Source: an uncultured Pseudomonadota bacterium
Lineage (GTDB): Bacteria; Oederibacteriota; Muellerivitia; Muellerivitales; Muellerivitaceae
NCBI GenBank assembly: GCA_963843375.1
Contig: CAWJKT010000010.1
Span: forward strand, 105,424-169,423
Length of the DNA: 64,000 nt
Reading direction: 5' to 3'
In this document: piece by piece, positions 9,656 through 41,198 of the stretch
Layout: every line of letters begins with the position of its first letter
How positions within the stretch are numbered: the stretch's first letter is position 1
Translations under genes and position numbers: made by a program
Notes under the pieces: generated by a model
The model's database searches: none
Told to the model about the DNA's origin: nothing
The model's input: the letters and a program-made list of their open reading frames with translations, nothing else

Positions 9656-10423
9656 GTGAGAATCTCGCGACTTCTTCATAACGGCAAACCCCGCTGGGCC
9701 ATGATGCTGGAATCCGGGGACACTTACCGTCTTTTTCATTCCGACGAACCCTGGAACGACCAGACTTTTGACCCCAAATCCTATCCGGTTCATTCCGAAA
9801 ACCTTTTGGCTCCTGCCCTTCCAAGTAAAATTGTCGCCGTGGGTCTGAATTATCGCGACCACATTCAGGAAATGAAACATGAGGACCACAAGGAGCCGGT
9901 TCTTTTCCTGAAACCACCCTCCGCTTTGTTGAAACCGGAAGGTAAAATCCTGTATCCTCCCTCATCTTCACGCGTAGATTACGAGGCCGAATTGGCTGTT
10001 GTGCTGAAAAGCCGCTTGCGTAAAGCTGGCCCCAAAGAAGCCCTGGAAGCCGTTTGGGGATTCACCTGTTGCAATGACGTGACGGCCCGGGATTTGCAGA
10101 AAACGGACGGTCAGTGGACAAGGGCCAAGGGGTTCGACAGCTTTTGTCCCCTGGGTCCCTGGCTGGTAACGGATTTTTTGGAGAAAAACCAAAAAATATT
10201 ATGCCGGGTAAATGGGGAAACAAAACAATCCGCGAAGATTTCCATGAGGATTTGGAACACGGCTGAATTACTTTCTTTTGTTTCAAAAGTCATGACCTTG
10301 GAACCCTTGGATGTCTTGACTACGGGAACCCCTTCCGGGATTGGGCCCGTAAATCCGGGGGATATCGTTGAAGTTGAAGTAGAAGGAATTGGCATTCTAC
10401 GAAATCAAGTTGCAGCTATTTAG
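9656..10423 (+). CDS. Fumarylacetoacetate hydrolase (FAH) family protein
   Basis: 255 aa, GTG start; FAH-family fold signature (…VGLNYRDHIQE…YEAELAVVL…CNDVTARDLQ…). Confidence 0.85.
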   Translation: MRISRLLHNGKPRWAMMLESGDTYRLFHSDEPWNDQTFDPKSYPVHSENLLAPALPSKIVAVGLNYRDHIQEMKHEDHKEPVLFLKPPSALLKPEGKILYPPSSSRVDYEAELAVVLKSRLRKAGPKEALEAVWGFTCCNDVTARDLQKTDGQWTRAKGFDSFCPLGPWLVTDFLEKNQKILCRVNGETKQSAKISMRIWNTAELLSFVSKVMTLEPLDVLTTGTPSGIGPVNPGDIVEVEVEGIGILRNQVAAI

Positions 10424-10437
10424 ACGCGGAGGAACAA

Positions 10438-11604
10438 ATGGATTTCCCACAAGCCGAACGGATGAAAAAATTTCCACCTTATCTTTTTATCGAAATGGAT
10501 AAAAAGAAAAAAGCGGCCATCGAAAAAGGCGTGGACATCATAAGCCTGGCCATAGGCGACCCCGATTTGGCCACTCCCGATTTCATTGTGGAGGCCCTTT
10601 ACAAAGCCGCCAAAGACAAGGCCAACCACCAGTATCCGCTAGGGCCGGGGCTACCCAAGTTTCGCGAGGCCGTGGCCTATTGGTATGACCGCCGCTTTGG
10701 GGTCAAGCTTGACTGGAAAGATGAAGTGGTGGCCTTGATTGGCTCCAAGGAAGGAATTGGTCATCTTCCAATTGGGATCATCAACCCCGGGGATGTGGTT
10801 CTCATGCCTTCGCCTGGATATCCGGTTTATCATGCGGGAACACTTTTTGCTGGAGGTGAATCTTATTTCATGCCGCTTTTGGAAAAGAACAATTTTTTAC
10901 CCGATTTGGACGCCATTCCGACTGGATGTTCTCAAAAGAGCTAAACTGATTTGGACCAATTCGCCCAATAATCCCACTGCTGTCCTCGCGGGAAAGGATT
11001 TTTTCACCAAAGTGATTGCATTCGCCCAAAAACATCAATCTCATCGTGGCCAACGACGCCGCTTATACCGAAATCTATTACGACGGGGAAAAAGCCGATC
11101 AGTTTCCTGGAACTTCCGGGTGCCAAGGAAGTCGGTGTGGAATTTCATTCCCTTTCGAAAACTTTCAATATGACCGGTTGGCGTGTGGGTTTTGCCGTGG
11201 GAAACAAAAGCGTCGTGAAGGCTCTGGCCGATGTGAAAGGAAACCTAGATTCGGGTGTTTTCAACCCCGTCCAATACGCGGGAATTGCGGCCTTGGAAGC
11301 GCCCGATTCGGTCACGGAAAATATTCGTAAAATCTACCAGGAACGCCGGGATATTTTTGCCGCGGGTTTGAAAAAACTGGGATGGCAATTCCATGTTCCC
11401 AAAGCCGCTTTTTACTTCTGGGTCAAGGTGCCAAACGGCATGACTTCCGCCGATTGGTGCGGAAAGGTATTGGAAGAGGCTGGAATCGTAGTCACACCGG
11501 GCAACGGATTTGGCAAGGAAGGCGAAGGCTATTTCCGCATGACCATTACGGTGGATAAAGCCCGCCTGGAAGAAGCGATACAAAGACTAGGAAAACTCAA
11601 ATAA
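10438..11604 (+). CDS. dapL: LL-diaminopimelate aminotransferase; at least 3 apparent frameshifts
   Basis: Three overlapping ORFs (10438-10944, 10739-11173, 11137-11604) tile a class-I aminotransferase with DapL-type N-terminus (…KFPPYLFIEMDKKK…); SLSKTFNMTGWRVG PLP-lysine motif. Confidence 0.75.
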
Positions 11605-35353: not shown

Positions 35354-35728
35354 GTGAATCCAGTCCTCAAAAAACTCCAATTCAAGGGCCAAAGTCCCGT
35401 ATTGTTGATAGCGGCTCCTGCGGAGTTTCGAAAGATCGCAAAAGATTTCAAGGTCCCACTTCATACCGACCCAAAAGGGCAATACGAATTTATTCTTTGT
35501 TTTGTCACCTCCTTGGCCGAAGGAGAAAAAATATCTAAACGCCTTAAAAAAGCGGTTGGTAAAAAGACCGTTATGTGGATTGCATATCCCAAGGGAACCT
35601 CGAAAAAGTACCACTCTGATTACAACCGAGATACTGGGAACGCACTGATGGAGAAGCGGGGTTTTACAGGTGTTTCATTGGTGGCCTTGGATGCGGATTG
35701 GTCCGCAATGCGTTTCAAAATATTTTGA
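35354..35728 (+). CDS. DUF3052-like small conserved protein
   Basis: VLLIAAPAEF, FILCFV, MWIAYPKGTSKK, VSLVALDADWSAMRFKI match the DUF3052 pattern (recalled from memory, not searched). Confidence 0.5.
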   Translation: MNPVLKKLQFKGQSPVLLIAAPAEFRKIAKDFKVPLHTDPKGQYEFILCFVTSLAEGEKISKRLKKAVGKKTVMWIAYPKGTSKKYHSDYNRDTGNALMEKRGFTGVSLVALDADWSAMRFKIF

Positions 35729-35832: not shown

Positions 35833-36219
35833 ATGAGGATTAAGCTAAACAGCGTATTCGTAGACGACCAAGAAAAGGCTCTTAAGTTTTATACAGAAGT
35901 CTTGGGTTTTGTTAAAAAAGTTGATTTCCCCGTGGGGACATTTAAATGGTTGACGGTTGTCTCTCCTGAAGAACCAGACGGAACACAATTATTGCTTTCG
36001 CCGAATGCCAACCCTACTTCAAAGACTTATCAAAAATCAATTTTTGAACAAGGAATACCTACCACCTCATTTGCGGTGGACGATGTTCAAAAAGAATATG
36101 AAAAGCTTAAAAAACTCGGAGTAAAGTTTAGGCAACAACCGGTAAAAATGGGACCGGTAACTCAAGCGGTTTTTGATGATACCTGTGGAAACCTAATTCA
36201 GATTGCAGAGAAGGAATGA
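35833..36219 (+). CDS. VOC (glyoxalase/bleomycin-resistance/dioxygenase) family protein, low-GC gene
   Basis: 128 aa with a paired beta-alpha-beta-beta-beta module pattern (…FYTEVLGF…; …VKFRQQPVKMG…TCGNLIQI); notably AT-rich. Confidence 0.8.
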   Translation: MRIKLNSVFVDDQEKALKFYTEVLGFVKKVDFPVGTFKWLTVVSPEEPDGTQLLLSPNANPTSKTYQKSIFEQGIPTTSFAVDDVQKEYEKLKKLGVKFRQQPVKMGPVTQAVFDDTCGNLIQIAEKE

Positions 36220-36249
36220 AAGTCTTTCCACAACGGGGAGGGTAAAAAG

Positions 36250-37032
36250 TTGAAAATAATCGGAAAAGAAATATTGGTAGTGCTGGGACTTATAGTCGCT
36301 ATAAGCATTCCAGCGTATTTACTCCGACTTCTCTTTAAGTACTACGCTTTGTTTTCGTCCGTCGACCCCTTTGGGACTACTTGGAAAGGAGTGTGGATCC
36401 TTCAGGCCTCTACCTTGGTGGGCGTTCTCGTGACCGCCCTCTATACGAGCTGGCTGTTCTCCCTAAAACCCTGGCAAGGATTTGAATTCATGGGATTCAA
36501 AAAGCCTGATGGGAAACAAATCCTAGTTGCTTTATTGGCTTCTTTGCCTACCGCTTTGAACATGTGGTATGCCCTTCATTCAAGTCCTGGCGCAGCTTTG
36601 ATTCAGGGTTGGGGACCCCACCTTCTTTTTTCTTTTCTTGGTAACGGGGTTGTCGAGGAAGGCTTTTTTCGCGGCTTTTTCTACCATTATTTTCGAATGA
36701 ACCACTCTTTTGAGGGAGCTGCTTTGGGTTCGAGCCTTCTTTGGAGCTTGGCGCATCTGTCAATGTCCAGTGCCTTCGGCTCTTTTTGGGTCTCCATGAT
36801 CTTGGCCCTCGTTTTGGGTTTCCCCTTTGCCTACCTTTTTGAAAAAGGGAAGAATGTCCTTTGGGGCTGTATGCTGGTCCACATGGTTCTTGATTCATCC
36901 CAGTTATTCAAAAATCCAGATGGAACCGGTCTTAATTTAGGAAATCTCCAGGTTGTGAGTCTTTTGCTCACCACAGCCCTTATTTTTATTCTGCCAAGAT
37001 GGGTTATGAAATCGGATCGATCAATTCAATGA
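36250..37032 (+). CDS. CPBP family (CAAX/Abi) intramembrane metalloprotease
   Basis: EEGFFRGFFYHYF (EExxxR), LLWSLAHL (FxxxH), MVHMVLDS (HxxxD) motifs in TM helices. Confidence 0.8.
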   Translation: MKIIGKEILVVLGLIVAISIPAYLLRLLFKYYALFSSVDPFGTTWKGVWILQASTLVGVLVTALYTSWLFSLKPWQGFEFMGFKKPDGKQILVALLASLPTALNMWYALHSSPGAALIQGWGPHLLFSFLGNGVVEEGFFRGFFYHYFRMNHSFEGAALGSSLLWSLAHLSMSSAFGSFWVSMILALVLGFPFAYLFEKGKNVLWGCMLVHMVLDSSQLFKNPDGTGLNLGNLQVVSLLLTTALIFILPRWVMKSDRSIQ

Positions 37033-37036
37033 TAGA

Positions 37037-37064
37037 TGTCCACGACGGGGACCCGTCATGGACA
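37037..37064. repeat. Palindromic repeat copy R1 (tgtccacgacgg-ggac-ccgtcatggaca)
   Basis: 28-nt near-perfect palindrome (12-bp stem with one mismatch, 4-nt loop) beginning 4 nt after the CPBP stop; carries the core TGTCCACGACGGGGACCCG. Confidence 0.6.
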
Positions 37065-37110
37065 TGGAAATATTAGTTAATGAGGACTACGTTTTTCGAA
37101 GGGAGGCGTT

Positions 37111-37521
37111 TTGAGAAAAAACAAGGCCTTTTCAAATGATCTCGGGACTTTGCCCGTCACTATTTATGGAGGGGTTCCAGGCGCATTGTCGTTGTTCGGG
37201 TTGGGATTTTGCCTGGCATTTATTGTCGTCTTTTTACAAGTAACTGGGGACATTGTTCCCTTGTGGGCATGGCTGCTTTTTGGTTCCATGTCTTTTTTTA
37301 TGTTTTTAATGGGAATGGTGATTCTTGAAAACCGCATCCAGGTTAACGAATCGAGTTTGTCCTTGTCCCGCATGCACTGGAACCTATTTTCCCCGCCATA
37401 CTTGAAAATTCCTTGGGCCGACATCCGGAAAATCGATGCCAGCCAAAAGAACATCAAACCCGGCCGATATGGCCCTAACCAAATAACGTTGGTCCAAATT
37501 TTTCACAGCAGCTCGGAATAA
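37111..37521 (+). CDS. Small membrane protein (2 TM plus soluble C-terminal domain; possibly bacterial PH-domain/YdbS-like)
   Basis: Two hydrophobic helices then …RIQVNESSLSLSRMHWNLFSPPYLKIPWADIRKID…; family assignment tentative. Confidence 0.45.
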   Translation: MRKNKAFSNDLGTLPVTIYGGVPGALSLFGLGFCLAFIVVFLQVTGDIVPLWAWLLFGSMSFFMFLMGMVILENRIQVNESSLSLSRMHWNLFSPPYLKIPWADIRKIDASQKNIKPGRYGPNQITLVQIFHSSSE

Positions 37522-37664
37522 CCAGCGGAGATAAACGTAACCTTATTCAAGTCGAATCCCCAATGGCCAGTTATCGAAAAACCATCCTAGAGAAAGTGGG
37601 TGAAGTTCGGATCACGGAATCGGCCGGAAGGATTTTGGGGCGGGCGAGTCTTCATTAGAAACTT

Positions 37665-37693
37665 GCCCACGACGGAAACCCGTCGTGGACACC
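37665..37693. repeat. Palindromic repeat copy R2 (ccacgacgg-aaac-ccgtcgtgg)
   Basis: Perfect 9-bp stem with a 4-nt loop; on the reverse strand it reads TGTCCACGACGGG…, matching the core of R1/R3/R4. Confidence 0.55.
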
Positions 37694-37720
37694 TAAATTT
37701 AGAATTGTGTACATAATTAT

Positions 37721-37748
37721 TGACATAGTAATAAGAAGCATTATATTG
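37721..37748 (+). promoter_or_regulatory. Sigma70-like promoter (TTGACA, 16-nt spacer, TATATT) for the Phd/VapC operon, with adjacent TGTACA palindrome
   Basis: Consensus -35 and a strong -10 about 40 nt upstream of the antitoxin start. Confidence 0.45.
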
Positions 37749-37788
37749 AAGGGGTCGAAGGTTTTATAGCTTTCAAGAAGGTGGTCTT

Positions 37789-38067
37789 ATGCGAGTCGCG
37801 GGAGTAAGAGAATTTAGGGATCACGCGCCGGAATTTTTGAGCGGCGACGACCTTGTCTTTGTGACCAAACACGGGAAGGTTGCCAGCCTTTTGGTTCCGA
37901 TGTCTAAGTCGCAGGAACTTCCCTTGGAATTGCGGAGGGAGCTTTTAACGAACCTGGGTTCTTCCATTTCAAATCACCTCAAAAAATCAGGCGTCACTGA
38001 GCGGACGGTAACACATGACTTTGAAACATGGAGAAAAAGCCACCGGGCAAATCGCCGCGGACGCTAA
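37789..38067 (+). CDS. Phd/YefM-family type II antitoxin
   Basis: MRVAGVREFRDHAPEFLSGDDLVFVTKHGKVASLLVP N-terminus typical of Phd/YefM; the 3' end overlaps the PIN gene and the true stop is uncertain. Confidence 0.7.
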   Translation: MRVAGVREFRDHAPEFLSGDDLVFVTKHGKVASLLVPMSKSQELPLELRRELLTNLGSSISNHLKKSGVTERTVTHDFETWRKSHRANRRGR

Positions 38068-38446
38068 CGTCCTCCTTTCCGCCGCAACCGGGAGGGCCGC
38101 TCTCAAAGTTTTCATCCATTCCAACCTTGAAGTCATATCCACATCCTTGAACATCAAAGAAGTTTGGGAATATCTTCCCGTAATGGCCGCGAAATATGGA
38201 ATAGCCCCTGAACTCATGGAAAGCCAATTTCAATTATTAGCTGTCAGGGAATACGAACTCAGGGATTACCAAGGATCATTGGCTATAGCTCGAAGAAAAA
38301 TTGGAAAACGAGACCCGGATGATATTGATTTGCTGGCTTTATCTCTTGATCTGGGAATACCCCTGTGGTCAAACGATGGTGATTTTTCGGGAACCGGCGT
38401 TGAATGGTATACCACGGCTCAACTTCTTAAAAAGTTAGAGCTTTAA
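38015..38446 (+). CDS. PIN-domain (VapC-like) toxin
   Basis: Acidic PIN residues in DANVLLSA … DPDDIDLLALSLDLGIPLWSNDGDF. Confidence 0.75.
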   Translation: MTLKHGEKATGQIAADANVLLSAATGRAALKVFIHSNLEVISTSLNIKEVWEYLPVMAAKYGIAPELMESQFQLLAVREYELRDYQGSLAIARRKIGKRDPDDIDLLALSLDLGIPLWSNDGDFSGTGVEWYTTAQLLKKLEL

Positions 38447-38460
38447 TATGCGGCTTTAGG

Positions 38461-38479
38461 TGTCCACAACGGGGACCCG
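38461..38479. repeat. Repeat copy R3 (tgtccacaacggggacccg; right arm degenerate)
   Basis: 18/19 match to the R1/R4 core, 15 nt after the PIN stop. Confidence 0.55.
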
Positions 38480-38623
38480 GAATGACAGGCTACTTGTAAG
38501 GTTTTACATCTTCATTAAGGGTCATTTGGGCGACGAAAAGGCTACTGGGGCGGGCACTTGTCGCCAAAATGGATTAAGCATAAAATGCTTTTAATTGTCA
38601 GGAAGAAACCAAAAGGCATTGAG

Positions 38624-38923
38624 ATGAAAACAGCCATCCAAATCGACAAAGAAAAAATAGCTGAAATATGCCGAAGACACCATATCCAAAGGCTGTCCCT
38701 TTTTGGATCGGTCTTGCGGGATGATTTCAAGCCCGACAGCGACGTGGACGTACTGGTGCAATACCAGCCGGGCCAGGCCGTTGGTTTCGAGGTTTTTGAC
38801 ATCGAAAAGGAACTATCGGACCTGTTTGGCCATGAAGTGGATTTGGTGACTGAAAAATACCTTAATCCACGCCTTCGGGAACGCGTGCTCAATTCGGCGG
38901 AAGTCCAGTATGCAGAGGGATGA
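38624..38923 (+). CDS. Nucleotidyltransferase (MNT) antitoxin of a HepT/MNT pair
   Basis: LFGSVLRDDFKPDSDVDVLV (GSxxRGxxxxxSDxD) nucleotidyltransferase motif. Confidence 0.75.
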   Translation: MKTAIQIDKEKIAEICRRHHIQRLSLFGSVLRDDFKPDSDVDVLVQYQPGQAVGFEVFDIEKELSDLFGHEVDLVTEKYLNPRLRERVLNSAEVQYAEG

Positions 38924-39248
38924 CCGGGTTTATATCGGTCATATGTTAGATACGGCCAAAAAAGCCATCCTGAAAATTCAAGGCCGGAAACAAGAAGAGT
39001 GCGAAGCGGACGAGGATTTTTGCATCGTCCTGGCCCATTACGTTCAAACTTTCGGGGAGGCCGCCCGACATGTAAGCCCCGCCTAACAATCCGCTCACCC
39101 CAATATTCCCTGGGAAAAAATCATCGGGACGCGCCATAAAATTGTTCACGATTATTTGAGCGTGGATTATGGGGTCGTCCTGGGGGTTGTCTTCAGGGAA
39201 TTTCCACCGTTAATCCCCATCTTGGAAAAATACCTGGCCGAGATTTAA
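38910..39248 (+). CDS. HepT (DUF86) toxin; apparent frameshift near 39080
   Basis: MQRDDRVYIGHMLDTAKKAILKIQGRKQEECEADEDFCIVLAHYVQTFGEAARHVSP… then, in another frame, …HPNIPWEKIIGTRHKIVHDYLSVDYGVVLGVV… (HepT Rx4HxY-type C-terminus); 14-nt overlap with the MNT gene. Confidence 0.65.
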
Positions 39249-39283
39249 ATTCGAGTTTTCGGGCTTATTTTGCCGAAACAACC

Positions 39284-39302
39284 TGTCCACGACGGGGACC
39301 CG
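39284..39302. repeat. Repeat copy R4 (tgtccacgacggggacccg; 19/19 identical to R1 left half)
   Basis: 36 nt after the HepT stop; right arm not conserved. Confidence 0.6.
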
Positions 39303-39392
39303 CCTTGAACAAAGAAAAAGAACTGATTTGGCGGTCTGAAATGTGGAGTCTCTCGATTGCGATTTCTGGAAAAAGGTCGTAGGATTTAGGTC

Positions 39393-39743: not shown

Positions 39744-39824
39744 TCCATTCCTTTTGCGGTTGTGAAAGCGAAAGCCGGTTGGCTTCCGCTTAATTGCGCT
39801 TTTGCGCTCAAAAGGAGTGGGACC

Positions 39825-41198
39825 TTGAAAAGCTTAAATAAGTACTCATCCGATTTTTTACCTGTACTTGGGCGGTTTTACCGCCCAAGTACACGACTTC
39901 TGCTATTGCCAGTCCTGACGGCTGTTTTCTTCATTTCACCCTGTTTTATTTCGGGTCTTTGGGCCGACTCGATGATGGACAAAATGATGCCTTCCATGAA
40001 AGAAGACGGCATCCTTTTGAATCCTACCCCAGACTTAGGTGGGATGGAACTGATGGACGTGGATATGCAGATGGTCATGCCCTTCGCCTTGCCCCACATG
40101 CCCATGAGCATGCTGATGCTTCACGGCTATGGTTTTGGGGAATGGATCACGGAAGACGGTGCCCGTGGCCGTACGGCTTTTTCAGGACCCGACATGTTCA
40201 TGGCCGATCTTGGAACGACCCTGGATGACCATCAATACCTCAACTTGGACTTAATGCTGACCAGCGACCTTTGGGCTGTGCCTGCCGCAGGAATCCCCGA
40301 ACTCCTGCAAATCGGCGAGGACCAGGCCAACGGCCAGCCTTTTATCGACGCTCAGCACCCACACAGTTCACCCATCATGGGCTTAACTCTCAGCGACACC
40401 TTTACCTTGGACGCAAGTGATAAAAGTGCCCTTAAATTATTCGTTGCGCCCCGGGGCGAAAGTACCGACGGGCCAATCGCTTTTATGCACCGGATTACAG
40501 GCATGGTTAATCCTGACGTGCCTTTGGGACACCATATCGGCCAAGACGTAGGTCACATTACGAGCACCGTTTTGGGCGAGTCGCTAAAACTGGGTAGCTT
40601 CCATATCGAGTCCTCGGTTTTTAACGGTTCGGAACCCAACCCTACTCAGGTGGACCTACCCATCGGCCCGATCAACTCAGTGGCAGTCCGGGGCATTGAG
40701 GAATTTGCACCGAACATCATGCTCATGGCTTCTTACGCCTGGGTGGGTACGCCCGAGCCGGGCATCGCCAATGACCAGCGCTATTCCGCCTCCCTTTACA
40801 CGCACACCCTACTTAGCGACACATGGACTTTTCATAACACACTTATCTATGGGGGTATTACCAATATCGACCACGTATTCCAGTTGAGTTCTTTTTTGGA
40901 TGAGTTTTTATTCAGTAACACTGTGGAAGACATATTCGCGCGCGTCGAAGTACTTCAACGCACACCGAATCAATTGGATATCCCCGACATTCCTAACGGC
41001 AATACGGGCCAATGGGTGAGCGCTTTGACGTTGGGGTACAGCCATCAGCTTGAGGCCTGGGATGGATGGGAATTGAGGGCGGGATTTTCCGTGACCAACG
41101 ACCAGCTTCCCGTGGACTATCAGGCATCTTATTCAGGAAACCCCTTTACCTATAAAGTGTTCTTCCAGTTGGGAGGCACCCAGTCTTATCAGCTTTAA
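39825..41198 (+). CDS. Met-rich outer-membrane protein, CopB/PcoB-like (putative copper export/resistance)
   Basis: TTG start 7 nt after an AAGGAG RBS; signal peptide (…RLLLLPVLTAVFFISPCFISGLWA|DS); Met-rich motifs MMDKMMPSM and MELMDVDMQMVMPFALPHMPMSMLMLHG; long C-terminal region with beta-strand-like alternation. Confidence 0.55.
   Translation: MKSLNKYSSDFLPVLGRFYRPSTRLLLLPVLTAVFFISPCFISGLWADSMMDKMMPSMKEDGILLNPTPDLGGMELMDVDMQMVMPFALPHMPMSMLMLHGYGFGEWITEDGARGRTAFSGPDMFMADLGTTLDDHQYLNLDLMLTSDLWAVPAAGIPELLQIGEDQANGQPFIDAQHPHSSPIMGLTLSDTFTLDASDKSALKLFVAPRGESTDGPIAFMHRITGMVNPDVPLGHHIGQDVGHITSTVLGESLKLGSFHIESSVFNGSEPNPTQVDLPIGPINSVAVRGIEEFAPNIMLMASYAWVGTPEPGIANDQRYSASLYTHTLLSDTWTFHNTLIYGGITNIDHVFQLSSFLDEFLFSNTVEDIFARVEVLQRTPNQLDIPDIPNGNTGQWVSALTLGYSHQLEAWDGWELRAGFSVTNDQLPVDYQASYSGNPFTYKVFFQLGGTQSYQL

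Follow-up and report, generated by a model that had tools for sequence, protein, structure and literature searches.

Do the short palindromic repeats that follow successive small gene modules at this locus mark the recombination sites of a cassette array, or are they REP/MITE-like elements or shared operators? The sequence-only reading of the window (the whole stretch of DNA analysed, 64 kb) had named all three. The four copies that it reported (R1–R4, Table 1) are located where it placed them, all on the plus strand, except that R2, which is present with its hairpin, spans 37664–37691 rather than 37665–37693. Its 19-nt core is also present, but corresponds to only the left 19 nt of a 28-nt unit. 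A search of the window with the 19-nt pattern, allowing up to three mismatches, returned 6 matches (R1 and R2 being matched on the reverse strand as well), whereas 0.00 were expected from 100 shuffles of the window. No other full copies exist in the 64 kb, as previously thought; however, a copy consisting of the left half alone, R0, had been overlooked. R0, which is missed by a strict 28-nt PWM, has two mismatches to the 14-nt left half, and 0 of ~2,800 random 110-nt windows reached two or fewer. Since R0 follows the glyoxalase gene, the CPBP gene is itself a cassette, and the array runs glyoxalase/R0/CPBP/R1/membrane protein/R2/Phd-PIN/R3/MNT-HepT/R4. Downstream intergenic gaps contain no half-sites beyond R4, and the five copies (R0 included) fall within 3 kb, with none in the remaining 61 kb. 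R3 and R4 keep the left half and have a degenerate right half, as had been noticed; in all, the right half is lost in three of the five window sites. Two extra 9-nt motifs described in the spacers around R2 and R3 do occur (37637/38547 and 37649/38509), but sharing of this kind is only slightly unexpected (at least two 9-mers are shared in 1.7% of shuffles), and the motifs differ in order and are not a feature of the repeat family.

Table 1. Sites, genes and signals of the cassette array in the window
Feature	Position	Strand	Details
Glyoxalase-family gene, upstream of the first (decayed) site	35833–36219	+	PF00903, E 5.8e-19
R0, decayed site, left half only, TTTCCACAACGGGG	36225–36238	+	6 nt past glyoxalase stop codon
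Cassette 1: CPBP/Rce1-like membrane protease gene	36250–37032	+	PF02517
R1, near-perfect 28-bp site, TGTCCACGACGGGGACCCGTCATGGACA	37037–37064	+	Sequence
Cassette 2: gene for a small predicted membrane protein (136 aa; uncertain start codon)	37111–37521	+	ORF list
R2, site with atypical centre, TGCCCACGACGG-AAAC-CCGTCGTGGACA	37664–37691	+	Polarity ambiguous on sequence alone
Promoter-like TTGACA-16-TATATT inside cassette 3	37720–37747	+	11/12 matches, top score in 18 kb scanned
Cassette 3: Phd-like antitoxin (37789–38067) and PIN_2 toxin (38015–38446)	37789–38446	+	PF10130, E 8e-19
R3, left half and centre intact, right half decayed, TGTCCACAACGGGGACCCGGAATGACAG	38461–38488	+	
Cassette 4: MNT nucleotidyltransferase (38624–38923) and HepT-like (38910–39249)	38624–39249	+	PF01909, PF18765
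R4, final array site, right half decayed, TGTCCACGACGGGGACCCGCCTTGAACA	39284–39311	+	

Between 35.8 and 39.3 kb, the window carries a decaying cassette array inserted among housekeeping genes, with no recombinase nearby: the array is located in a chromosomal region bounded by housekeeping genes, and a Pfam search of the window genes between 32 and 46 kb detected no recombinase. Given these flanks and the three sites without a right half, the window cassettes are probably becoming fixed. The HepT-like gene of cassette 4 is broken by an in-frame TAA at 39084–39086, as read directly from the sequence. The protein of cassette 2, whose gene is separated from R2 by a 142-nt tail, has no Pfam match; a homologue (36% identical) is encoded immediately upstream of a site in another locus (L049).

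The repeats belong to a family of 175 oriented copies in ~57 loci, found in at least 19 species-level MAGs that are mostly assigned to candidate division FCPU426. The site is 28 bp long, TGTCCACGACGGG-GA-CCCGTCGTGGACA, with two inverted 13-bp half-sites around an asymmetric GA, and is weakly extended to 30. The family consensus of the 28-nt unit is a perfect palindrome, TGTCCACGACGGGGACCCGTCGTGGACA, and the central GA is the sole asymmetric element of the site. Copies were detected symmetrically and their polarity was assigned from the central GA/TC alone; 175 of 184 copies detected in this way have the GA centre. Neighbouring copies display the same polarity in 116 of 117 pairs, the lone exception being a fold-back contig produced by assembly. 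The spacing between copies has a median of 922 bp (5th percentile, 417 bp), and the commonest content of an interval is a single gene (67/116). Genes are co-oriented with the sites in 159 of 187 cases. In particular, the gene upstream of a site is co-oriented with it in 128 of 140 cases, the site lying a median of 19 nt past its stop codon, and the following gene begins a median of 45 nt after the site. In one locus (L117), 13 sites are co-oriented over 21 kb, and the cargo comprises toxin-antitoxin, GNAT, beta-lactamase-fold, hydrolase and unknown genes. The sequence-only reading would have been undermined by a motif present in all intergenic regions genome-wide. The motif is indeed frequent in related genomes, occurring in at least 9–10 separate 8-kb blocks per MAG, yet it is clustered within arrays.

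Modules with the repeat at their ends reappear in other genomes, in different contexts, and homology breaks inside the repeat, as expected of the cassette array with recombination sites that had been proposed. The Phd-PIN cassette of the window is found in four other loci with different neighbours, namely, L052 (88%), L121 (98%), L122 and L212 (82%), and in L212 it directly adjoins a short serine recombinase. Its promoter-like element is conserved in the L052 copy. The 5′ boundary of this cassette is fuzzy, homology beginning 13 nt (L052) or 49 nt (L121) past the site. Cassette 1 has a 94% identical copy in L116, where homology stops at site position 19 and unrelated sequence follows. Homology ends at position 18/19 in the pairs L116/window, L052/window, L035/L038 and L071/L106, and at R3 the homology with both L052 and L212 stops at the same point. 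L056 and L060 are 100% identical from position 2 of the upstream site through position 18 of the downstream site, and L215/L216 are 100% identical to L217 through position 18, diverging afterwards. The Cas1 cassettes of L002 and L108 have the same unusual right half, differ at position 6 of the left half and are preceded by unrelated flanks. Platform-side halves that differ from position 16 are common to L028, L213 and L125, which have different neighbours. Combined, these breakpoints bracket the crossover to positions 7–15 of 28, including the GA at 14–15, under the assumption that the different events pooled here had a single common crossover point. The crossover is not pinned to the GA, because positions 1–18 are nearly invariant and alignments extend into them regardless of history.

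Of the enzymes envisaged nearby, neither a tyrosine recombinase nor a RAYT was found, but in related genomes a short serine recombinase is encoded beside the site. Its clade comprises 19 protein clusters, 70–100% identical and all 275–283 aa long. All 19 members contain PF00239 (catalytic) and PF07508 (recombinase domain, RD) without PF13408 (zinc ribbon, ZD), and the proteins end exactly at the RD/ZD boundary where relatives of 450–480 aa run on into the zinc ribbon. The catalytic residues are kept. An AF2 model of the short recombinase, of moderate confidence (pLDDT 70.5), resembles large serine integrases; its C-terminal half superposes on the DNA-bound recombinase domain of 4kis with an rmsd of 2.4 Å over 134 columns. 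A site is found 8–115 nt past the stop codon of the short recombinase in all 10 lineages with enough sequence (L028, L123, L125, L127, L129, L132, L212, L213, L214 and L215–217), whereas none of 78 long-form relatives has one within 6 kb. Remnants in L026, L039 and L106 display the same arrangement. Site polarity is opposite to that of the recombinase gene except in lineage P0128, where it is the same, and the sequence upstream of the gene is not conserved. In large serine recombinases, a 25-bp half-site is contacted by RD and ZD jointly, both attP × attB selectivity and directionality come from the coiled-coil of the ZD, and the central dinucleotide alone sets orientation (PMC3783163 and references cited there). 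An RD-only enzyme is therefore expected to recognize a half-site of ~14 bp and to treat all sites alike.

The explanation that we favour, and consider rather probable on the basis of sequence comparisons, is that the repeats are double-stranded recombination sites bounding mobile gene cassettes, which would form an integron-like platform with the short serine recombinase. We infer that this enzyme acts on the sites, with cleavage at the GA and circular intermediates. It would bind each site as a dimer and cut the central dinucleotide, whereupon halves could be exchanged between any two sites. Two direct sites that recombine would release a circular cassette with one site, and the reverse reaction would insert such a circle at any other site. 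As the 2-nt GA overhang would religate in one alignment only, insertions would keep their polarity and arrays would stay co-oriented. After the exchange, the left half would remain with the upstream gene and the right half would travel with the downstream gene. Several observations count against this explanation. No recombinase accompanies the window array, the 5′ boundary of the Phd-PIN cassette is fuzzy, the site polarity of lineage P0128 deviates, the sequence upstream of the recombinase gene lacks conservation, and R2 has AAAC in place of GGAC at its centre. The short recombinase might also be part of a mobile element that merely targets the repeat, like the group II introns and IS110 elements, and conjugative-element genes do adjoin it in L125 and L129. 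Moreover, the inner half is perfect on the left in 114 of 175 copies and on the right in only 50, and for this stronger decay of the right half the model offers no clear account.

A different explanation, which we regard as unlikely, is that the repeats are REP- or terminator-like intergenic hairpins that work at the RNA or single-strand level, ending or stabilizing the upstream transcript, and that were spread by a transposase. Mobile elements, including the carrier of the recombinase, would land there, and reassortment would be a by-product. The position of the copies shortly past the stops of co-oriented genes would suit such hairpins, and R1 and R2 fold stably as DNA (z −3.8 on the plus and −5.8 on the minus strand for R1; −6.6 and −7.5 for R2). 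The hairpin described in the window does not extend to R3 and R4, however, which do not fold (z +0.3 and +0.2 on the plus strand), and 38% of all copies have at least two mismatches in the inner right arm. At 11 places a group II intron starts right behind the palindrome, with gene-sense orientation in 10 cases, and IIC introns insert behind the stem-loops of terminators or behind other inverted repeats (PMC1702495). Elements of the IS110 family, too, lie directly against copies of the site. The region shows no enrichment of canonical terminators, which leaves room for some other 3′-end signal. Nevertheless, no T-tract follows the hairpins, as had been observed before, and the downstream flank is A-rich; the copies lack the GC-rich hairpin plus T-tract of an intrinsic terminator, and a terminator scan picked up only R2, on the reverse strand. 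Compensatory covariation between the arms is absent, and stem mismatches comprise 202 non-wobble pairs versus 72 G-T on the gene strand and 107 would-be G-T on the other. Since the arms do not covary and the halves are unevenly conserved, protein half-sites fit better than a selected stem. Furthermore, hairpins give no account of a 2-nt loop asymmetry kept in nearly every pair of neighbours, and the RAYT-like arrangement, a gene between inverted copies, is not seen in the sampled loci. Conservation of the 28-mer extends over at least 19 species, in contrast to REPs, which are usually species-specific. Finally, the recombinase adjacency (10/10 versus 0/78) ties at least one enzyme family to the site. 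The REP/MITE and shared-operator proposals find no support, given the strictly co-oriented, gene-spaced arrays without inverted doublets, the arms without covariation and the many copies unable to fold.

Could the window instead be a CALIN of a divergent integron, its very short attC sites folding as single strands and being recombined in that form by an IntI-type tyrosine recombinase encoded elsewhere in the genome? We find this highly improbable. Co-oriented arrays with mostly one gene per interval, and a cargo of toxin-antitoxin and unknown genes typical of chromosomal integrons, would agree with it, and attC is a known target of group II introns as well as of IS110/IS1111-type elements (PMC3001079, PMC7923331). 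By contrast, the copies are not canonical attC sites, as the sequence-only reading had recognized: they are 28 nt long against roughly 57–141 nt. They also lack the RYYYAAC...GTTRRRY boxes of the attC consensus. The site is a perfect palindrome in consensus without conserved extrahelical bases, and breakpoints fall near its centre, not 6 nt from the 3′ end (G/TTRRRY). No tyrosine-recombinase box II motif was detected in the window or the ~57 array loci, and no multi-member Phage_integrase family among 129 array-linked ORFs; tyrosine recombinases are seen in L125 and L212, but not consistently.

Equally improbable, in our view, are Xer-type pdif-like modules, in which the 28-bp sites would be 11-6-11 targets of the host XerC/XerD. 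The length and the 11-6-11 symmetry agree with such targets, as does the unequal conservation of the arms, known from dif-like sites, and in L212 a XerC/D-like gene (PF02899 and PF00589) is located 3.3 kb from the serine recombinase. That gene is, however, absent from the other recombinase contexts, and the sites are direct in 116 of 117 pairs, whereas pdif modules are bounded by alternately oriented sites. To our knowledge, the 28-bp site also bears no resemblance to the widely conserved dif consensus. CRISPR-like repeats linked to array-borne Cas1, suggested by the CRISPR-like 28-nt palindromic length and by Cas1 genes immediately after a copy in L002 and L108, are effectively refuted, because the median spacing is 922 bp with real genes between, spacing of 30–40 nt occurs nowhere, and Cas1 is rare (2 of ~57 loci) and carried as ordinary cargo, being widespread and ~70% identical across phyla.

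Integrons, defined by IntI and folded attC sites, are the standard example of stockpiling and reshuffling of single genes. Our literature search found nothing similar to the arrays described here, and we put at about even the chance that FCPU426 and its relatives invented the integron principle independently, with a serine recombinase of ~276 aa, 28-bp double-stranded palindromes and orientation set by the GA alone; without the zinc-ribbon/coiled-coil domain, the enzyme would work reversibly and make no distinction between sites. If so, cassette platforms would have evolved more than once, the second time around an enzyme not homologous to IntI and a simple double-stranded site, and the arrays would represent a new class of mobile-gene system. 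Searches based on attC or IntI would then miss accessory-gene arrays of an entire class, at least among the candidate phyla of peat and soil, and such arrays would account for the breaking of MAG assemblies into short contigs. A 276-aa serine recombinase that works with 28-bp sites lacking the attP/attB asymmetry would represent a new kind of minimal architecture. It could aid the study of how large serine integrases gained directionality, and a compact short-site recombinase might become a genome-engineering tool.

Among known systems, integrons share with the FCPU426-type arrays the co-orientation, mostly one gene per cassette followed by a recombination site, a cargo rich in toxin-antitoxin pairs, acetyltransferases and unknowns, and cassettes common to different arrays and genomes. 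Moreover, in both, some arrays end in a recombinase gene beside a hybrid platform/cassette site, many others, like CALINs, have no recombinase, and the sites attract group II introns and IS110-type elements. However, the linked enzyme here is a serine and not a tyrosine recombinase, and the site is a 28-bp perfect palindrome instead of a 57–141-nt imperfect hairpin with R/L boxes and extrahelical bases. Breakpoints lie centrally instead of at the 3′ edge, and nothing suggests that single-strand folding is selected for. The recombinase gene usually stands at the 3′ end of the array and is convergent with the cassettes, whereas in integrons it is divergent at the 5′ end, and many arrays occur per genome.

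The crossover sites of serine recombinases (res site I, hix/gix of DNA invertases, attP/attB) likewise consist of inverted half-sites with polarity from the central dinucleotide alone, and at 28 bp for res site I of Tn3/γδ resolvase and 26 bp for hix they approach the site length found here. The short recombinase itself combines the resolvase catalytic domain with the recombinase domain of large serine integrases. Nevertheless, the small serine recombinases known so far act on one fixed segment, which they resolve or invert, and depend on accessory sites or an enhancer; large serine integrases have a zinc-ribbon/coiled-coil domain and recombine only attP with attB, on sites of 40–50 bp. Here, an RD-only enzyme is associated with dozens of equivalent direct-repeat sites per genome between unrelated genes. 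Staphylococcal and enterococcal cassette chromosomes (SCC, ECC), mobilized by the large serine recombinases Ccr, also pile up in tandem with short direct repeats between them. SCC elements differ in spanning 20–60 kb, in having the end of rlmH as their one integration site and in carrying full-length Ccr, whereas the cassettes described here are ~0.4–4 kb long, with 28-bp palindromes at many loci and a recombinase without the zinc ribbon.

The pdif modules of Acinetobacter plasmids resemble these cassettes in being small, in including toxin-antitoxin genes, in having 28-bp bounding sites and in being reassorted among replicons. Their sites are alternating, dif-like and served by host Xer, in contrast to the direct, dif-unlike and serine-recombinase-linked sites found here. 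REP/BIME elements, which go with RAYT transposases, are comparable in that they too are short GC-rich palindromes just 3′ of genes, occur many times in a genome and serve as targets of insertion sequences. In contrast to these elements, the sites of the FCPU426-type arrays have strict polarity and neither inverted doublets, a RAYT between copies nor covariation; their sequence is conserved across many species, and whole genes move with them.

The repeats that a sequence-only reading had reported in the window are confirmed and extended to five sites. All four copies listed there, R1–R4, were recovered on the + strand, and the 19-nt pattern, allowing up to three mismatches, has six matches in the window versus 0.00 in shuffles, six coming from four copies because R1 and R2 match on the reverse strand too. 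The proposed 19-nt core is indeed present, but in-register alignment reveals a real unit of 28 nt, the right arm of which decays from R1/R2 to R3/R4. A fifth copy, R0 (TTTCCACAACGGGG), had been overlooked; it lies 6 nt 3' of the glyoxalase stop codon and has 2 mismatches relative to the 14-nt left half, a match as good being found in 0 of ~2,800 random 110-nt windows. R0 was recovered by a left-half scan limited to intergenic gaps; scanning for decayed copies with a strict 28-nt PWM gave no separation from noise. Since R0 follows the glyoxalase gene, the order of the array is glyoxalase / R0 / CPBP / R1 / membrane protein / R2 / Phd-PIN / R3 / MNT-HepT / R4. Outside the array the window carries genes of housekeeping type, the only kind returned by the NCBIfam batch scan of its flanks. 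No recombinase gene was found in the window, and Rfam at gathering thresholds gave no match there.

Positions of the sites and of the features discussed in the text
Feature	Sequence	Position
R0	window	36225
R1	window	37037
R2	window	37664
R3	window	38461
R4	window	39284
Tail before R2	window	37522-37663
Shared 9-nt motifs	window	37637-37657, 38509-38555
38-nt inverted repeat	window	35446-35483 / 39793-39830
HepT-like toxin gene	window	38910-39249
In-frame TAA	window	39084-39086
Fold-back	L109	2300-7700
IS110-family gene	L068	5803-6879
IS110-family gene	L108	298-1443
IS110-family gene	L108	5396-6472
Cas1 gene	L117 (= L002)	10001-11041 (= 146-1186)
Cas1 gene	L108	7239 onward
Cas1 gene	L118-L120	
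Inverted site pair	L125 (= L126)	10955-11032 (= 1348-1425)
RadC-family gene	L129	6612-7133
RadC-family gene	L125	11188-11682
RadC-family gene	L214	541-1023

The non-coding tail between the small membrane-protein gene and R2 measures 142 nt, against a family median of 19 nt, and may be the leftover of a decayed gene or cassette. Two extra 9-nt motifs noted earlier, GGGGCGGGC and TCTTCATTA, are present, common to this tail and to the leader after R3 in reversed order, but they are weakly unusual (at least two shared 9-mers in 1.7% of shuffles) and no feature of the site family; either chance or descent from related cassette ends may explain them. The 38-nt inverted repeat, 76% complementary, encloses 4.3 kb with the whole array and may likewise be due to chance. 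In the MNT-HepT pair the antitoxin gene is intact; the HepT-like toxin gene has an in-frame stop upstream of its Rx4HxY motif (RHKIVHDY, encoded 3' of the TAA) and is therefore probably a pseudogene.

Species-representative genomes were scanned once, for a pattern built to match all four window copies, and yielded at least 116 loci. By arithmetic, ~70 single matches to the degenerate 19-nt pattern are expected by chance in 596 Gb, and no family-type copy occurs in 57 of the 116 loci, which come from Actinomycetota, Streptomyces and other genomes; single matches in Actinomycetota and other high-GC genomes were thus rejected as chance. The true family signal comes from MAGs of candidate division FCPU426 obtained from peat, bog and soil, with further carriers in one Firestonebacteria MAG and in a few MAGs whose label is 'uncultured bacterium' or 'uncultured proteobacterium'. 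The source of these MAGs is Stordalen and Microflora Danica samples. The family occurs in at least 19 species-level genomes, and the viral contigs scanned gave 0 matches. Its consensus is a perfect palindrome, TGTCCACGACGGGGACCCGTCGTGGACA, with a weak extension by one pair on each side; its outer TGTCCA is conserved. Identity to the window is 94% across the CPBP gene in MAG MFD05512.bin.1.167 and 88% across Phd-PIN in palsa_1180, so the window most likely belongs to this lineage. Two MAGs with the title 'uncultured proteobacterium', MFD05512.bin.1.167 and MFD09286.bin.2.44 (loci L002, L041, L047, L056, L058, L060, L072, L074, L077, L097, L108 and L116), have arrays of the FCPU426 type and share genes with the window at 84–94% identity; their label is therefore probably wrong.

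For the architecture census, copies were re-detected with a symmetric criterion and polarity was read from the central dinucleotide alone (GA or TC), which oriented 175 of 184 copies. Polarity is the same in 116 of 117 adjacent pairs, the sole inverted pair being that of the fold-back contig L109. There the same genes and sites are mirrored around an intron fragment; this large fold-back, also the source of spurious miRNA-family Rfam matches, is in all likelihood an artefact of long-read assembly. Adjacent copies are spaced by a median of 922 bp (interquartile range 679–1846), and the commonest interval content is one gene (67/116). The gene upstream of a site is co-oriented with it in 128 of 140 cases and ends a median of 19 nt before it, the next gene starts a median of 45 nt downstream, and 159 of 187 genes between sites have the polarity of the sites. 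Of the 175 oriented copies, 114 have a perfect inner left arm and 50 a perfect inner right arm. One contig, L117, holds 13 co-oriented sites within 21 kb, with a cargo of VapB-PIN, PemK, a beta-lactamase-fold protein, a GNAT acetyltransferase, a hydrolase, CHASE2, Cas1 and unknowns.

Proteins encoded near the arrays were clustered and annotated. A nearby tyrosine or serine recombinase (IntI-like, Xer-like, RAYT) had been suggested earlier as something to look for. What was found at array ends is a serine recombinase that combines a Resolvase with a Recombinase domain; no RAYT was seen in the sampled loci. No tyrosine recombinase occurs among the clustered proteins, and an integron integrase was rejected because the search of all array loci and the window for the tyrosine-recombinase box II motif gave nothing credible and the batch Pfam scan of 129 ORFs no recurrent Phage_integrase. 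The serine recombinases form a tight clade of 19 clusters (70–100% identity), all of them short (275–283 aa) and lacking the zinc ribbon. Relatives that reach no more than 60% identity are ordinary large serine recombinases of 450–480 aa, and the short proteins stop exactly where the long forms run on into the zinc ribbon. Catalytic residues are conserved, and the AF2 model (pLDDT 70.5) matches large serine integrases, its C-terminal half matching the DNA-bound recombinase domain of 4kis. A site lies 8–115 nt 3' of the recombinase stop codon in all ten lineages with enough sequence (L028, L123, L125, L127, L129, L132, L212, L213, L214 and L215-217), and gene remnants occupy the same position in L026, L039 and L106; by comparison, 0 of 78 long-form relatives have a site within 6 kb. 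The site has a polarity opposite to that of the recombinase gene in nine of the ten lineages, the same polarity being seen in the P0128 lineage; in those nine, the gene therefore runs towards the cassettes from the 3' end of the array. The site next to the recombinase is of hybrid make-up, with consensus sequence on the cassette side and lineage-specific sequence on the platform side; one platform type (L028, L213, L125) differs from position 16 on (…GGGG-A-GGTGTAGTGGACA). Upstream of the recombinase there is no conserved region, except partly between L028 and L129.

Two site copies in L125 are inverted, 22 nt apart and just 3' of the short recombinase, and could represent an invertible or otherwise special platform site; upstream of them are conjugative-element genes encoding a TraG-like coupling protein, HTH_17 and a tyrosine integrase. 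RadC-family genes lie ~1–3 kb from the short recombinase, on either side, in three independent contexts.

The earlier idea of a cassette array with recombination sites is supported by cassettes that stand in different contexts, with breaks inside the site. CPBP homology between the window and L116 ends at site position 19, with unrelated sequence beyond. The Phd-PIN module of the window recurs in four other contexts: in L052 (88% identity) with a site on each side, in L121 (98%) with the same downstream site and a different upstream gene and site, in L122, and in L212 (82%) exactly from R2 position 1 to R3 position 18. The 5' edge of the Phd-PIN cassette is blurred, as homology begins 13 nt (L052) or 49 nt (L121) past the site. 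L060 has a 920-bp cassette in common with L072 at 100% identity; L056 and L060 are 100% identical from position 2 of the upstream site to position 18 of the downstream site, L215/L216 and L217, from different samples and with an identical encoded recombinase, match at 100% up to and including position 18 but not beyond it, and homology ends at position 18/19 in three more locus pairs, endpoints to be read with the caveat that positions 1–18 are near-invariant, so that alignments run into them whatever the history. The Cas1 cassettes of L002 and L108 are 99.8% identical and have in common an unusual right half, CTTCGTGAACA; they differ at left-half position 6, and their upstream flanks are unrelated. 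The breaks inside the sites thus imply that an upstream gene takes the left half along with it, and a downstream gene the right half. The Cas1 case, taken with the platform halves differing from position 16, would bracket the crossover to positions 7–15, around the GA at 14–15.

Other mobile elements also meet the site. Group II introns (Rfam RF02003 D1-D4-4, RF00029; with RT/maturase ORFs) start directly 3' of the palindrome in 11 places (L034, L060, L068, L074 with three copies, L082, L109, L112 and L011), gene-sense in 10, the junction reading …GTGGACA on the site side followed by TCGTGCCAG… The site is therefore a preferred group II intron homing target in these genomes. IIC introns are known to insert in such places, namely behind a terminator stem-loop, another inverted repeat or an attC site (PMC1702495, PMC3001079), and the placement seen here fits that habit. 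IS110-family transposase genes (DEDD_Tnp_IS110 and Transposase_20) adjoin copies of the site and occur in both orientations with respect to it.

The main rival explanation takes the palindrome for a REP- or terminator-like element that is a target for several mobile elements, one of them carrying the short recombinase; in its favour, conjugative-element genes adjoin the short recombinase in L125 and L129. Of the window copies examined for folding, R1 and R2 do form stable DNA hairpins (z −3.8 to −7.5), but R3 and R4 have no fold (z ~0 on the + strand). The right arm shows no more compensatory covariation than random pairing would give, whether it is matched to the left arm of its own site or to the one at the far end of the cassette, and stem mismatches are mostly non-wobble (202, versus 72 that pair as G-T on the gene strand and 107 that would do so on the other). 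As had been remarked earlier, there is no T-tract after the copies. A selected hairpin was rejected on these three grounds. The terminator scan of the region, with 24 found versus 25.8 expected, weighs neither way. A REP/MITE element, one of the earlier proposals, is not supported given the missing arm covariation and the lack, among the loci sampled, of inverted doublets or of a gene between inverted copies, the latter two also counting against RAYT/REPIN; nor is a shared operator. A CRISPR/Cas1 reading was rejected: the Cas1 adjoining a copy is an ordinary CRISPR-type Cas1, cargo of a 28.5-kb array, with no CRISPR-like spacing among copies and no CRISPR array seen. In L117 this gene lacks a cas2 partner, and a TPR gene encoded on the other strand comes next; identical Cas1 genes on short contigs from other samples are followed by an overlapping 111-aa ORF.

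For large serine recombinases it is established that the recombinase and zinc-ribbon domains jointly contact a 25-bp half-site, that selectivity for attP × attB and directionality are due to the coiled-coil of the zinc-ribbon domain, and that the central dinucleotide alone sets the orientation (PMC3783163 and references therein). Given these roles, an enzyme with only the recombinase domain would be expected to need a half-site of ~14 bp and to act reversibly, all sites being alike. The 13-2-13 site, the polarity set by GA only and the many equivalent copies match this expectation, as do strict co-orientation, central breakpoints and arms kept as sequence and not as stem. We thus infer an integron-like platform with a short serine recombinase acting on the sites: the enzyme would cleave at GA, and cassettes would leave as circles and re-enter at any site.

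Overall, a serine-recombinase cassette system is the best explanation of these comparisons, one that we regard as reasonably probable, and the window holds a decaying array of it with no recombinase nearby. Searches of the literature on the phylum, on the motif string and on cassette systems run by serine recombinases turned up no published description of it, and we know of no serine-recombinase system that arrays single genes by dozens of equivalent sites. The system works in the manner of an integron but departs from integrons in their defining features, namely, IntI, attC structure and boundary position. Its 28-bp site has the same anatomy as serine-recombinase crossover sites. The nearest analogues are SCC elements and pdif modules, which differ from it in enzyme, site, scale or orientation.
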